A stretch of 64,000 nt of DNA from Tubiluchus corallicola (Eukaryota > Animalia > Priapulida): positions 248,001 through 312,000 of the forward strand of contig JAQGDQ010000200.1 in assembly GCA_030141605.1 (NCBI GenBank), read 5' to 3'. The notes beneath the pieces were generated by a model. The model was not told the origin of the DNA, searched no databases, and worked only from the letters and a program-made list of their open reading frames with translations. Shown here piece by piece: positions 1,890-31,183 of this stretch; position 1 is the first letter of the stretch; every line of letters starts with the position of its first letter. Made by a program: the position numbers and the translations under genes.

Positions 1890-2800
1890 AACCAAGTTTC
1901 AATGCATGAGTTTGGATCAACTGTGTTTGGATCAATTTTATCTTTAATTTTTTTCTCTCCGACCAAAAATAGCAAATTTTCCTGCTTTGATTCATACGTA
2001 TAATAAAATGACCAATACAATCTTTCTGCCTTGTTTCAAGCGCAGAAGAGTAAGTTCGGCTCGTTATCTTTGATTCATTCAAATGCCTCAGGCTTAGTCT
2101 AACTTCCCTGACTTAATTTAAATGCTTTGGGATCAATTGTAGCCCTTGTATTCCTGCTTTAAGTTCAGGAATCAGAATCTACTGTTTCAGAGTCAGCGCT
2201 ATTGCATTGCTTTGATTCAAAGTGCATTAGAATCTGTTTAATTAGAACTACTGCTTTGACTGATGTGCACCAGAATCAGACCAATTTTGTATATTGATTT
2301 AAATTCGCTAAGATAATTCTACTGTTTTGATTTAAGTGCGTTTGAATCAGCTCATTCATTCAACTTTGATTTACGTGACTTAGCTGCCAAGTCCAAACTT
2401 CTGCTTTGATTCAAGAGAATGATAGACTAGAACCAGCCAACCCTTTTGCGTTGATTCATTTGCATTGGAAATAGTCCAGTAAGTCCAGTACAACCTCCTT
2501 GAGTAAAATGAATTACAATCATCAATACACTCTTTTTTATTCAAGCGCGTTAGAAATCAGCCCATTTCATTTGCTTTGATTCAAGTGCATTAGAATGAGT
2601 TCATTCATCCTGCCTTAATTCAAAAGAATCCATCAGAATCAGTGCAATCGGCCCATCCCCCGGGCTGGATTCAACAGTACTGGAACCAGTCCAATGTTTT
2701 TGCTTTCATTCAAGGGCATCAGAGCTGTAAATCCTCTTGCTTTGATACAGTTGCACTAGAAATAGTCCAATACTGCCTGGTGCAGCGGAATTAGTCCCAT
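1890..2800 (-). repeat. Degenerate tandem array of ~39-bp units (minus-strand consensus about TGGACTGATTCTAATGCACTTGAATCAAAGCAGGATGAA)
   Basis: The plus-strand motif tgctttgattcaagtgcattagaatcagtcca recurs with heavy divergence, e.g. near 1982, 2208, 2251, 2402, 2572, 2701 and 2738. It lies directly downstream of the stop of family member 1. Confidence 0.7.
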
Positions 2801-3150
2801 CCTTCTACTTCTACTCTTGCCTCTAGTGCAGTAGTATCACCGAGATGCAAGCCCAATTCTCCTGCCGATGAATCTGCAGCAGAATATGGTATATCCGAAG
2901 TACCTTCCATTAAACCGGTCTGTCCCTCGTTTCCTGTAACGCGTTGATAATTGTGTATGCTTGGTAGCTCCGAAGCTTCTTTCATCCCTCCTACAATCAT
3001 AGCGCTATCTGAAAGGCTCAAGTGCTGTGCTAGTACGAGCTGGTCAGTATTAATGTAATAATAATTATTAATGACTGGAGTTTGACAACAAGGCATCTGT
3101 GATATGTGCGGTTGTCGTTGGAGATGTTGTTGTCTAAAGTATTGATGACG
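2791..3150 (-). CDS. Secreted DP-motif family member 1, 3' coding exon only (5' exon not identified)
   Basis: Acceptor tctctatcttttccggtgcag precedes 3150. The exon reads RHQYFRQQHLQRQP..PCCQTPVINNYYYINTDQ...AGELGLHLGDTTALEARVEVEGWD*, matching both family motifs in diverged form. The upstream part of ORF 2791-3570 looks intronic. Confidence 0.6.
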   Translation of the reverse strand, partial: RHQYFRQQHLQRQPHISQMPCCQTPVINNYYYINTDQLVLAQHLSLSDSAMIVGGMKEASELPSIHNYQRVTGNEGQTGLMEGTSDIPYSAADSSAGELGLHLGDTTALEARVEVEGWD

Positions 3151-3599
3151 CTGCACCGGAAAAGATAGAGACAAATCTATGAAGAGTAGAAGGTTAAGAA
3201 CGGAAATGTGTCCCAAGAAAAGGAATCTGCAAAATAAGATAACAACAAAACTAATAAAATTGCAGATCAACCAAAGACCGAAATTTATTCCTTTCTTTGG
3301 CTCGTTCTGTATTTCGTTGCAATATTCTACAATGTTTTTCTCATAGTATTTTACGATCTCGATGCGACCAGTTGATACTTGATAAAAATACAAATTTAAA
3401 AAGAAATGATTATGTCTTTTTGTAAAAAAATATAAAATACATATTACATGTTCAGATGAATACAAATAAATACGTGTGTTTGAGGTTAACAAAATAGTTA
3501 CCATCACATTCAGTAATTGTTGTAGCCTGCAAAATGGCACAAAGTTGAAGCCTTCAAAGTGTCCTTCCATATATGTAATATTGTTGCCTCAACATCGAA

Positions 3600-3851
3600 T
3601 GTCAGCCCTTGACATTAAATTTTTAAATGAATAGTGTTTCTTGACGCCATATTACATGGCGTGGCCATGACTTCCGGTCGCAAGGGAATGGGATTTGAGT
3701 TCTGAGGAAGGGCATCAGTTTGTGAATGATTGTTTCCACAACTGATACTCTTCTCTGAACATTTAAGAGCATCAGTTGTTGAAGGATTTCTTTCCAGAAT
3801 TGATGCTTCTCCTTGTGACAGAATCTCCTTGTGACCGACAGCGAACAACAT
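3600..3851 (-). pseudogene. Possible degenerate extra family member
   Basis: The ORF ends ...PCNMASRNTIHLKI*. Removing one A from the AAAAA run gives CNMASRNTIHLKFNVKG, similar to CGSNTINIVFHVNG of member 7. No signal peptide or C-terminal motif was found. Confidence 0.3.
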
Positions 3852-28552: not shown

Positions 28553-28762
28553 GACCAAAGTACTATAGCACTTTAGCAATAAGGATTGCTCCGTGAGCGT
28601 GTTAGTACTGCAGTCAAGTTCGTGGTAAGCGCAGAGATTCTGTTACTTTTTATTTATTATTTCTATGTCTGTAAATGCTTGATTTATTCTTGCATAGCTC
28701 TTTATTAGTCTTGGCGTTTTTTTGTTTTACATTCTTGACGTATGCTTCTTAGTTTCAGAAAA

Positions 28763-29860
28763 ATGGAATTGCGAGTTGTGTTTGCATTTCTCCTTCTGGT
28801 AGCGTCTGTGGGTGCAAGCCGACGCGGCAGTGGCAGCGGCTACGGTTATGGCTTCAGACGGGGATCTGGTTCTGGACGGGGATATTACCGCAGACCAGCC
28901 GCTCGCGACACACCTCAACCGGTTGTTCAACAACCGGTTGTTCAGCCAGTTGTACAACCGACGGTTGTTAAACCGGTTGTTATCCACACCAGCACTCCAA
29001 CACGGTATGGACAGGCCAGTTATGGAAGGCAGGGTGGTTCCGGGTATAGAATGCCTGGGCAATCCGGCTATGGTTATGGGCAGTCTGGCTACGGTCGCGG
29101 GCAAGCTGGCTATGGTTATGGACAGTCTGGCTACGGTCACGGGCAAGCTGGCTATGGTTATGGACAGTCTGGCTATGGTCACGGGCAAGCTGGCTATGGT
29201 TATGGACAGTCTGGCTATGGTCAAGGGCAAGCAGCTGGCTATGGTTATGGACAGTCTGGCTACGGTCATGGGCAGCCTGGCTATGGTTATGGACAGACTG
29301 GTACTGGTTACGGGCAAGCTGGCTATGGTTATGGACAGGCAGGTACTGGTTACGGGCAAGCTGGCTATGGTTATGGACAGGCCGGTACTGGCGAGCAAGC
29401 TGGCTATGGTTATGGACAAGCAGGTACTAGTTACGGGCAAGCTGACTATGGTTATGGACAGAATTCCAATTATGGGCGAGGTGGATATGGTCAGTCTGGC
29501 TATGGTTATGGTCAACCTGGCTATGGACGTGGCGGATACAATGCTGCAGGTTATTCAAACAGTGGATCACAACAATACCAACAACAGGGAGCTTCCAATT
29601 ATGGTTATGACCAGCGGCAAGGCTATGGACAATCCGGTGGATATGGTTACTCCAATCGAGAATCATCTGGCTACGGATACCAGCACGAACCGGGACGCTC
29701 TACTGGTTATGGCTACCAGGATAATGCATCTTCTGGTCATGGACATGGCCAACAGCATGGCTATGACGAAGCGACCGGATATGGAAACCAACGGTATGGA
29801 GCTTCTGGAAGTCAGCAGTATGCTGCCGCCGGTTACGGAAGGCAAGGCTATTACAACTAG
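28763..29860 (+). CDS. Secreted Gly/Tyr/Gln-rich repetitive structural protein (365 aa)
   Basis: Signal [22 protein letters not shown] repeats; about nine 14-aa (42-bp) [18 protein letters not shown] repeats; ends [15 protein letters not shown] near 29947. Confidence 0.85.
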
Positions 29861-30790
29861 GCTTACTTGTTAACAAATATTTATTACTGTATTGTAATTA
29901 CTCGTGTGTTCTGTTTTAAATACCTAATTTTTCTTGTCTGTGGTGTAATAAATACGTTGTTTCTTACATATAATTAGATTTCCTGCATGGTTTTATTATT
30001 ACGTTTCAACCCCAACGGGTAGTACACTACATACTGTCTAAACAAATTTTAACACTTTGTCATTTTAACACCCAACAGTTGATACAGTACACATTGTCTA
30101 ATTGAACTAGTAATAATATTTTCAGAACAACGTTACACTTTTTGTACGTAGTTTAATTCAGATTTAATGTTTTGTACGTGTGCAAAATATGTCAGTCTGT
30201 TCTTCTTAATTAGTACATTAATGTTCATAACTGATATTGTGTATAAACATGTCATATGTAACTATAAGTAACTATACATGTTAATGCGTCATTTACGCCT
30301 AGTTTTATAACAGTGCGCCGAAATAAAAAATGGTTGGTCTGTTGACTGACTCTGCTGTTTCAACCATCAAAACAATTTTTACAGTAAAACATAAAATGTG
30401 CTACACAGTCAGTTGAACAGTAAATGACCATCTTTTGATATAACACGCCGGCCGTAACTTGACACCAGTTCAACACGCTTCACTCATTTCAATGAAAGTT
30501 TTTAGTAACAATTTTGGAAAAGTGTGTAGTAGTCGGTTTCTGCAATCAGTGAAGAATTTTATCAATAATAGACTTTCTTTTTTCTGCATCTTGCAACAAT
30601 TTATAGTAGAACTGCAATAATTGCGTTTTACAAAATCAAAAGTAGTTTTAACGTACTTTTACCTTTTTACAACATTTTATTGCACAATAGTTACAAGACT
30701 GAATTACATTTTCACAGTAAATACCAAGTCACTTATATATTTTATACCATGCAAAGTAGTAGCAAGACTAAACCTTTTACAATACACAAA

Positions 30791-31183
30791 TCACTTATAT
30801 CTTTTATACCCACTACTGGGCACTTCTATTCTGGCGTCGGCGGCTTCGGGATCATCCAGCACTAAACCAGTGTCTCCACCTACCACGTTAGGGAGATCTT
30901 CAGAATTTTCAGGCAACTTTTCTATCATTATCTCTGGAAAACGAGGAGGAGCCTGAGTTTTTGCTGTCGTTGTTGCCGTTGCTATTGTCTTTGCTGATGT
31001 TGATCGCATTGATCTTGATTTCCACGGGTTTTGAATGTTGTTAAAGTGAAAGAAATTTACCCGGGGTTTGTAAATTCCAGGAACCCATTGTGAAATTTCT
31101 TTTGCCGTAGGCATATGAATGGTCCAGTCAAATGAATGTAAGGGTGTTACCAAAATAAAGATTAAAACCAGCTTCCTACACAT
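30791..31183 (-). CDS. Secreted DP-motif family member 9 (130 aa, divergent)
   Basis: Signal MCRKLVLIFILVTPLHS; PRVNFFHFNNIQ (strand motif without the Cys); Thr-rich linker; GGDTGLVLDDPEAADARIEVPSSGYKRYK*. Acceptor ctttttacag lies 1 nt before the ATG, with a donor near 32004 and TATAAA near 32062. Confidence 0.8.
   Translation of the reverse strand: MCRKLVLIFILVTPLHSFDWTIHMPTAKEISQWVPGIYKPRVNFFHFNNIQNPWKSRSMRSTSAKTIATATTTAKTQAPPRFPEIMIEKLPENSEDLPNVVGGDTGLVLDDPEAADARIEVPSSGYKRYK

Follow-up and report, generated by a model that had tools for sequence, protein, structure and literature searches.

Nine tandem genes share two short motifs

The window analyzed here is a 64-kb stretch of DNA from the priapulid Tubiluchus corallicola (contig JAQGDQ010000200.1), and its central feature is a tandem cluster of nine genes for small proteins, numbered here as members 1 to 9. 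Stop-to-stop translation gives nine minus-strand open reading frames (ORFs) with stops at 2791, 7325, 10489, 13882, 17470, 19851, 21829, 25873, and 30791. Their stop-to-stop spacing is 2.0-4.9 kb, in line with the ~2-5 kb given by a first-pass annotation of this DNA. All nine ORFs, co-oriented as that annotation had stated, and the 17 motif strings that it quoted were found by eye in these translations.

The proteins are related through two motifs, each present as a single copy per gene. Motif 1 consists of a Cys, a short spacer, and an octamer of aliphatic or aromatic residues and Asn. Motif 2, near the C-terminus, is ~20 residues long; it contains two Gly, is built around an Asp-Pro core, and carries Arg-x-Glu close to its end. 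A profile built from the nine C-terminal halves recovered the nine members with E values of 1.5e-6 to 4e-30, compared with 0.2 for the best other segment among 2,847 six-frame segments, and a profile search of the window returned no tenth member. When each member was left out in turn, all nine still scored above the best non-member. The weakest were member 6 (E 0.25, 9.9 vs 6.9 bits) and member 3 (E 0.03), and in this test the close paralogues 2-4 support each other.

The motifs were also scored separately, using matrices that exclude the tested member and its close paralogues and 2,000 shuffles each; the test is post hoc, with motif windows set from the alignment. Motif 2 reached p=0.0005 in eight of the nine members, the truncated copy in member 6 giving p=0.06, and motif 1 reached p<=0.004 in seven. 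Member 3 has no motif 1, and the string proposed as motif 1 in member 9 lacks the Cys and did not stand up to the test (p=0.22). Since motif 2 persists in members 3 and 9, from which motif 1 is missing, it is the constant element of the family. The sequences between the motifs, described earlier as almost unalignable, are so between subfamilies; within them, members 2 and 4 align end to end at 56% and members 6 and 7 align over 111 aa (E 1e-11). Judged from these sequence comparisons, the nine genes are a real family of tandemly duplicated paralogues.

Gene models

The coordinates of the genes are collected in Table 1. Seven members start at an ATG in the main exon. In the models of members 1 and 8, the coding sequence begins in a short exon further upstream, in both cases joined across a predicted intron with good GT-AG sites. 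Three earlier statements about gene ends are revised by these models. Member 1, thought to lack its 5' exon, has an open 149-aa frame when the predicted exon starting at ATG 3975 is included. Member 8, counted among the eight genes with an identified start, offers no in-frame ATG that could serve as a start within its main exon, and the predicted start at ATG 27064 is the best of 18 candidate joins. Member 9 was taken to end at 31183, and its 5' exon lies beyond that point.

Strong splice donors occur 350-820 nt 5' of the ATG in members 2, 4, 6, 7, and 9; that of member 2, at 8099, belongs to a predicted intron in the 5' untranslated region (5' UTR). Thus, the family appears to share one predicted gene plan, seen in members 1, 2, 4, and 6-9: a short 5' exon followed by an intron close to the start codon and a single main coding exon. 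Member 3 arose recently as a copy of member 4, with 96% identity over 225 nt of intron, and is shorter by 81 codons, in frame. A common promoter signal was considered and rejected: a TATA-like box near the donor occurs only in member 9 and one neighbouring gene, against a background of 3/26.

Table 1. Coordinates of the nine family members, associated exons and introns, and the neighbouring genes in the window
Feature	Coordinates	Strand	Description
Member 1, 149 aa	2791..3975	-	Coding exon 1 3975-3962, predicted intron 3961-3227, exon 2 3226-2791; adjacent Cys pair (3090, 3087) ahead of motif 1; motif 2 close to C-terminus
Member 2, 142 aa	7325..7753	-	Cys at 7495; motifs 1 and 2
Member 3, 65 aa	10489..10686	-	Motif 2 retained, motif 1 absent; C-terminal Gly
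Member 4, 146 aa	13882..14322	-	Cys at 14049; motifs 1 and 2; C-terminal Gly
Member 4, 5'-UTR intron, 515 nt	14435..14949	-	GT-AG; skipped exactly by one contig of run X2
Member 5, 124 aa	17470..17844	-	Cys at 17712; motifs 1 and 2
Member 6, 149 aa	19851..20300	-	Cys at 20147 and 20042; complete motif 1, truncated motif 2; C-terminal Gly-Lys-Lys-Lys
Member 7, 183 aa	21829..22380	-	Cys at 21984; motifs 1 and 2; C-terminal Gly-Lys-Lys
Member 8, 106 aa	25873..27064	-	Predicted coding exon 1 27064-27058, intron 27057-26187, exon 2 26186-25873; Cys at 26097; motifs 1 and 2; C-terminal Gly-Lys
Member 9, 130 aa	30791..31183	-	Mature part without Cys; motif 1 not significant; Thr-rich middle; strong motif 2
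Member 9, 5' exon and TATA-like box	32005..32070	-	Exon ~32035-32005, box ~32067; intron 32004-31185; matches N-terminal extension of P0137
Gly/Tyr/Gln 7-residue repeat protein	28760..29860	+	Between members 8 and 9; signal-like start; no family motif
Gly-rich protein	33363..34331	-	Signal-like start; ~150-aa C-terminal domain common to Priapulus caudatus proteins
Second Gly-rich family member	39825..40703	-	60% identical over 153 aa to the 33363-34331 product

Relatives in sequence databases

The nine-member profile retrieved two proteins among 3,925 candidates, P0003 and P0004, which match member 4 at 76% and 74%. A search of 1.84 billion representative proteins at E<=0.001 gave five matches: P0004, P0136 (orthologue-like to member 7), P0137 (orthologue-like to member 9), P0134, and P0135. 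The last two were rejected as relatives; they are tandem-repeat proteins whose score is summed over five stretches and involves only the motif-1 part of the profile. The four genuine relatives are all singletons without a name, on Logan contigs 1.2-1.5 kb long. Members 1, 5, 6, and 8 had no outside protein homologue in the searches made.

No Pfam family passed the cut-off for the nine members or for a set of 13 sequences, and the best match among PDB sequences had an E value of 1.2. In the ESM Atlas, the best feature score for member 4 (0.79) was below shuffle level and residues 125-183 of member 7 had no usable match, neither of which is a sign of novelty. An exact look-up in the protein collection found none of ten window proteins. 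Protein searches returned no family member from P. caudatus; because true orthologues themselves score only 37-46 bits, near the threshold, this does not establish absence from that species. The literature searched (titles and abstract openings) contained no description of the nine-gene family, and the part of PMC11793982 available held nothing relevant to it.

These results uphold the earlier view of an unrecognised, lineage-specific family. Many invertebrate genomes contain orphan arrays of small secreted proteins. The family appears new to the databases searched and of a familiar kind, a lineage-restricted tandem array of small proteins predicted to be secreted and disordered.

Selection and transcription

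Pairwise dN/dS ratios were 0.43 for members 2 and 4 (140 codons), 0.36 for members 2 and 3, and 0.70 for members 3 and 4. In the sequencing run X1, 10 of 21 coding differences are synonymous, compared with ~24% expected (p ~0.016); the 21 are the X1 coding changes among the 40 difference rows listed, out of 135 from the runs. X1 covers 2797-3267 of member 1 with one difference; in member 4, it lacks 9 nt of motif 2 at 13927, a loss that preserves the reading frame. It looks like DNA and may be the source of the window itself, and is therefore not independent. At the level of codon comparison, these data demonstrate purifying selection on family members.

Among the sequencing runs listed as containing this DNA, none is recorded as RNA or resolved by tissue; a second run, X2, is taken to be RNA by guess. 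It covers 4/30 bins in one comparison and 7/30 in another, and uncovered parts of the runs count as no evidence. Its pieces on members 2-4 are ~80-90% alike, with 34 differences in one contig on 7556-7756, and another contig joins exactly across the 515-nt intron in the 5' UTR of member 4. Additionally, the N-terminal extension of P0137 matches an exon ~820 nt upstream of member 9 that joins the main exon in phase, so P0137 appears to derive from a spliced transcript. With two splice junctions backed by outside sequence, there appears to be transcription of the relatives of both member 4 and member 9.

These observations bear directly on whether the ORFs could have arisen by chance or be decaying copies. 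Member 3, a shortened recent duplicate with the dN/dS of 0.70 relative to member 4, may indeed be decaying, and four members have no outside protein homologue. The profile statistics, the dN/dS values of 0.43 and 0.36, the four orthologue-like proteins, the two supported splice junctions, and a coding GC content of 0.39-0.49 against mostly 0.30-0.40 per kb in the surroundings all speak against this explanation, which we regard as extremely unlikely for the cluster and as already largely refuted for members 2, 4, 7, and 9.

Predicted properties of the proteins

In all nine members the most hydrophobic 9-mer lies within the first 28 residues (Kyte-Doolittle 2.3-3.8), which agrees with the signal-like N-termini noted before and with probable secretion of the family. 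The charge-hydropathy index is near zero for eight of the nine. An AlphaFold2 model of member 4, computed from a 13-sequence alignment, has a pTM of 0.27 and shows no globular fold; two helices are predicted at residues 31-51 and 58-77, and the remainder has no structure. Downstream of its signal region, member 7 consists of 25% Gln.

Motif 1 is the top beta-prone 8-mer in each of the seven members that have it, and an amyloid hexapeptide pattern overlaps it in six of the seven. It thus offers a beta-prone, Asn-containing segment of the kind expected to drive aggregation in a functional amyloid or cross-beta matrix protein. The single Cys earlier ascribed to the family holds for members 2, 4, 5, 7, and 8; two mature Cys occur in members 1 and 6 and none in members 3 and 9. 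Oligomerisation through motif 1, by disulfide or cross-beta contacts, is plausible on these predictions.

Antimicrobial or venom-like families are commonly tandemly duplicated and small in size, with signal-like starts and a possible amidation signal, so a role of the nine proteins as defence or prey-directed peptides was considered. Such peptides would be expected to have a net positive charge or a multi-Cys scaffold, and neither was found: the members are neutral to acidic rather than cationic (net charge -9 to +2), with no more than two Cys in any mature chain. They are under purifying selection, and the Pfam rows are at chance level only (the lowest E value is 0.035, and a conotoxin row appears for one of 13 sequences at E 5.6). 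We consider a role of this kind very unlikely.

Comparison with the orthologues helps to distinguish proteins used whole from precursors. Between member 4 and its two orthologues, the N-terminal linker is identical at 62/70 and 57/70 positions (81-88%), motif 1 at 73-80%, and motif 2 at 14/20 in both (70%). For member 7 the corresponding values are 87/112 (77%) for the linker, 100% for motif 1, and 18/20 (90%) for motif 2. The linkers are under strong constraint in two of the three paralogues with orthologue pairs, and their conservation in members 4 and 7 is in keeping with use of the whole protein, as opposed to a pro-region that is cut off and lost. The family has no dibasic or RxxR site in common in the stretch from the signal region to motif 2, and members 1, 7, and 8 as well as P0136 and P0137 have no such site upstream of motif 2.

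The C-termini point in a different direction. Members 3 and 4, like P0003, P0004, and P0137, end in Gly, and members 6, 7, and 8, like P0136, end in Gly followed by 1-3 Lys; members 1, 2, 5, and 9 have no such signature. This feature was not mentioned in the first-pass annotation, and because of it the ligand reading proposed there retains some probability. The nine proteins could be priapulid-specific signalling peptides or hormones, with motif 2, amidated at the terminal Gly, acting as the receptor ligand and motif 1 packing the precursor in secretory granules. Such a role would agree with the retention of motif 2 in eight of nine members, including member 3 despite its 81 lost codons, and with a conservation of motif 2 above that of the linkers in members 7 and 9.

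Amidated neuropeptide and hormone precursors in general resemble the family in the signal-like start, the conserved C-terminal segment, and the terminal Gly with or without basic residues, present here in five of nine members. They differ in that the nine tandem paralogues have no conserved basic cleavage site ahead of motif 2, a single motif copy per gene, and linkers that, in members 4 and 7, are conserved at 77-88%. No Pfam hormone family matches, and a faint likeness of motif 2 to pedal-peptide/orcokinin and CRF-type peptides has no Pfam support. The X1 deletion at 13927 also falls within the segment that would be the ligand, and four members lack the terminal Gly. Overall, a signalling role seems unlikely to us, though it is the main rival of the reading favored below.

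A possible structural role in an outer matrix

Because the Gln-rich linkers of members 4 and 7 are conserved, no cleavage site is shared, no globular fold is predicted for the one member modelled, and the products of the neighbouring genes are rich in Gly and Tyr, we favor, with moderate confidence, the interpretation that the family consists of lineage-specific, secreted, mostly disordered structural proteins of the cuticle or a similar outer matrix, used whole. The three nearest other genes encode Gly/Tyr- or Gly-rich proteins with signal-like starts. In the proposed mechanism, the epidermis would secrete the nine proteins. Copies would stack through motif 1, whose Asn/aliphatic octamer is beta-prone and follows a Cys, and intermolecular disulfides would lock them together. 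The C-terminal motif 2 would act as a docking or recognition segment, material properties would be adjusted by the linkers, which are Gln-, Pro-, or Thr-rich depending on the paralogue, and some members may carry an amidated C-terminus formed at the Gly. Of the three functions suggested earlier, a self-assembling extracellular protein fits best, and a peptide precursor fits poorly given the conserved linkers and the missing common cleavage site.

Several observations weigh against this interpretation. Nothing in the present analysis links the nine genes to the epidermis or to moulting, and the Pfam scan found no chitin-binding or other cuticle domain in the members, which are themselves not Gly/Tyr-rich. 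The neighbours are unrelated in sequence to the family, one lies on the opposite strand, and their own cuticular role is suggested by composition. Motif 1 and its Cys are absent from members 3 and 9. In member 9, conservation is higher in motif 2 than in the linkers: relative to P0137 its linkers are identical at 12/21 and 22/54 positions (40-57%), the putative motif 1 at 5/10, and motif 2 at 15/22 (68%). A terminal Gly or Gly plus Lys marks amidated peptides from regulated secretion, and it occurs in five of nine members and four of four orthologues compared with a background of 46/1,097 segments, although these are homologous positions and thus not independent counts. Finally, in the parts of the sources available, an absence of cysteines is described as a hallmark of arthropod cuticular proteins (PMC2932725), and amyloid fibrils are argued against in the pharyngeal cuticle (PMC9629831).

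The same self-assembly chemistry could serve a different matrix, such as an egg envelope, an adhesive, or epidermal-gland mucus. All of the compositional evidence for a matrix fits such a gland or gamete secretion equally, and Gly/Tyr repeats like those of the neighbouring gene occur in eggshell and cement proteins as well. Motifs shared with eggshell and peritrophic matrix are also described in the available part of PMC2932725. Positive evidence for this assignment is lacking, and dN/dS is below 1, without the fast evolution that is generally common in gamete-recognition proteins. We see this assignment as a minority possibility. A further scheme combines both kinds of function in an amidated signalling family with its own assembly switch, in which the Cys and a cross-beta motif 1 would pack or tether the protein, and the amidated motif 2 would act on receptors or nucleate cuticle assembly. 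This seems quite improbable; if true, it would mean a nine-paralogue ligand family with no arthropod or nematode counterpart and matrix-type proteins bearing a hormone-type modification.

Returning to a structural role in cuticle, the closest parallels come from two other groups of moulting animals. According to the accessible text of PMC9629831, six nematode-restricted families of low-complexity secreted proteins, Cys-, Pro-, or Gln-rich and expressed at cuticle building, form the pharyngeal cuticle of Caenorhabditis elegans. Like these families (IDPA, IDPB, IDPC, APPG/ABU-PQN, NSPB, and FIPR), the nine genes belong to a worm that moults its cuticle and encode small, domain-less, signal-bearing proteins restricted to one phylum, in which disordered Gln/Pro-rich sequence is interrupted by short stretches of position-by-position identity. 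By prediction they are likewise secreted, low in complexity, and disordered, with the structure model coming from member 4 alone. They differ in having 0-2 mature Cys, one beta-prone octamer, and a 20-residue C-terminal motif that often ends in Gly. No homologue of the C. elegans families was among the five matches at E<=0.001 in 1.84 billion proteins, a search of low sensitivity for short motifs, and the same paper, as far as available, reports no homologues of its families outside Nematoda. The sequence logos of that paper could bear on motif likeness. Reversible disulfides are described as cross-links of the nematode cuticle in the accessible part of PMC11304992.

The second parallel is with arthropod cuticular arrays. 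Drosophila arrays of up to ten domain-less secreted genes have been suggested to be structural (PMC2932725, available part). As in CPR, Tweedle, CPF/CPFL, CPLC, and these unnamed arrays, the priapulid genes are short, secreted, and tandem, with brief motifs in poorly alignable low-complexity sequence and Gly/Tyr-rich genes adjoining. In contrast to them, the nine genes have no R&R or other Pfam cuticle domain, contain a conserved Cys where arthropod cuticular proteins mostly have none, and are demonstrably homologous to one another. With no homology and no cuticle domain found, the family appears to belong to neither the nematode nor the Drosophila systems.

Priapulids are early-branching moulting animals with a three-layered, decay-resistant cuticle (PMC5011709, part of the text), and the literature searched, at the level of titles and abstract openings, included no study naming a priapulid cuticle protein. 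If the nine proteins are cuticular, Priapulida would be a third ecdysozoan phylum to make cuticle from its own disordered, short-motif families. The 38-kb stretch holds three candidate families, namely the nine genes, the Gly/Tyr repeat protein, and a Gly-rich family common to P. caudatus, and the exact gene models and motifs can be used for proteomics and in situ work.

Neighbouring genes and other features of the window

The gene between members 8 and 9 encodes 367 aa with a 21-nt period in about 19 repeat copies, and its product is a candidate tyrosine-cross-linked matrix protein. The 33363-34331 product had nine matches among 207 candidates, of which seven are named, all from P. caudatus (54-70%), and two are unnamed. 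Its C-terminal domain is 54-79% identical to these seven P. caudatus and two unnamed proteins, with 44 invariant columns over 11 sequences; it had no Pfam match and gave no confident model (pTM 0.16). Together with the 39825-40703 product, it appears to represent a well-conserved, unnamed priapulid family whose domain lies behind Gly-rich N-terminal repeats. Kinship of the nine genes with these Gly-rich neighbours was rejected (probability 0.3%).

Two stretches, 40800-41498 and 38327-38692, contain nested inverted repeats just upstream of the second Gly-rich gene (pairs of 133 nt, 98% identical, and 93 nt, 91% identical) and a 108-nt pair at 96%; they may be miniature inverted-repeat transposable element (MITE)-like or fold-back elements. 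A high-copy interspersed repeat at ~12300-13000, between members 3 and 4, matches thousands of X1 contigs with a summed depth of up to 20,000, and a lesser high-copy repeat lies at ~5700-6100.

Animal RAD1 genes usually contain introns. The RAD1 gene of the window, identified by Pfam at 59208-60044 on the plus strand, has a coding sequence that is a single uninterrupted ORF, for which intron loss or a retrocopy is possible. No homologue exceeded 73% among the 120 matches listed. In a 56-row tree it pairs with P. caudatus (88/94, not starred), with long branches and no other ecdysozoan in the tree. Together with the P. caudatus matches of the Gly-rich product, this pairing points to a priapulid other than P. 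caudatus. Head to head with RAD1 lies a multi-exon gene at ~49000-57700 on the minus strand, fragments of which resemble a putative isovaleryl-CoA dehydrogenase.

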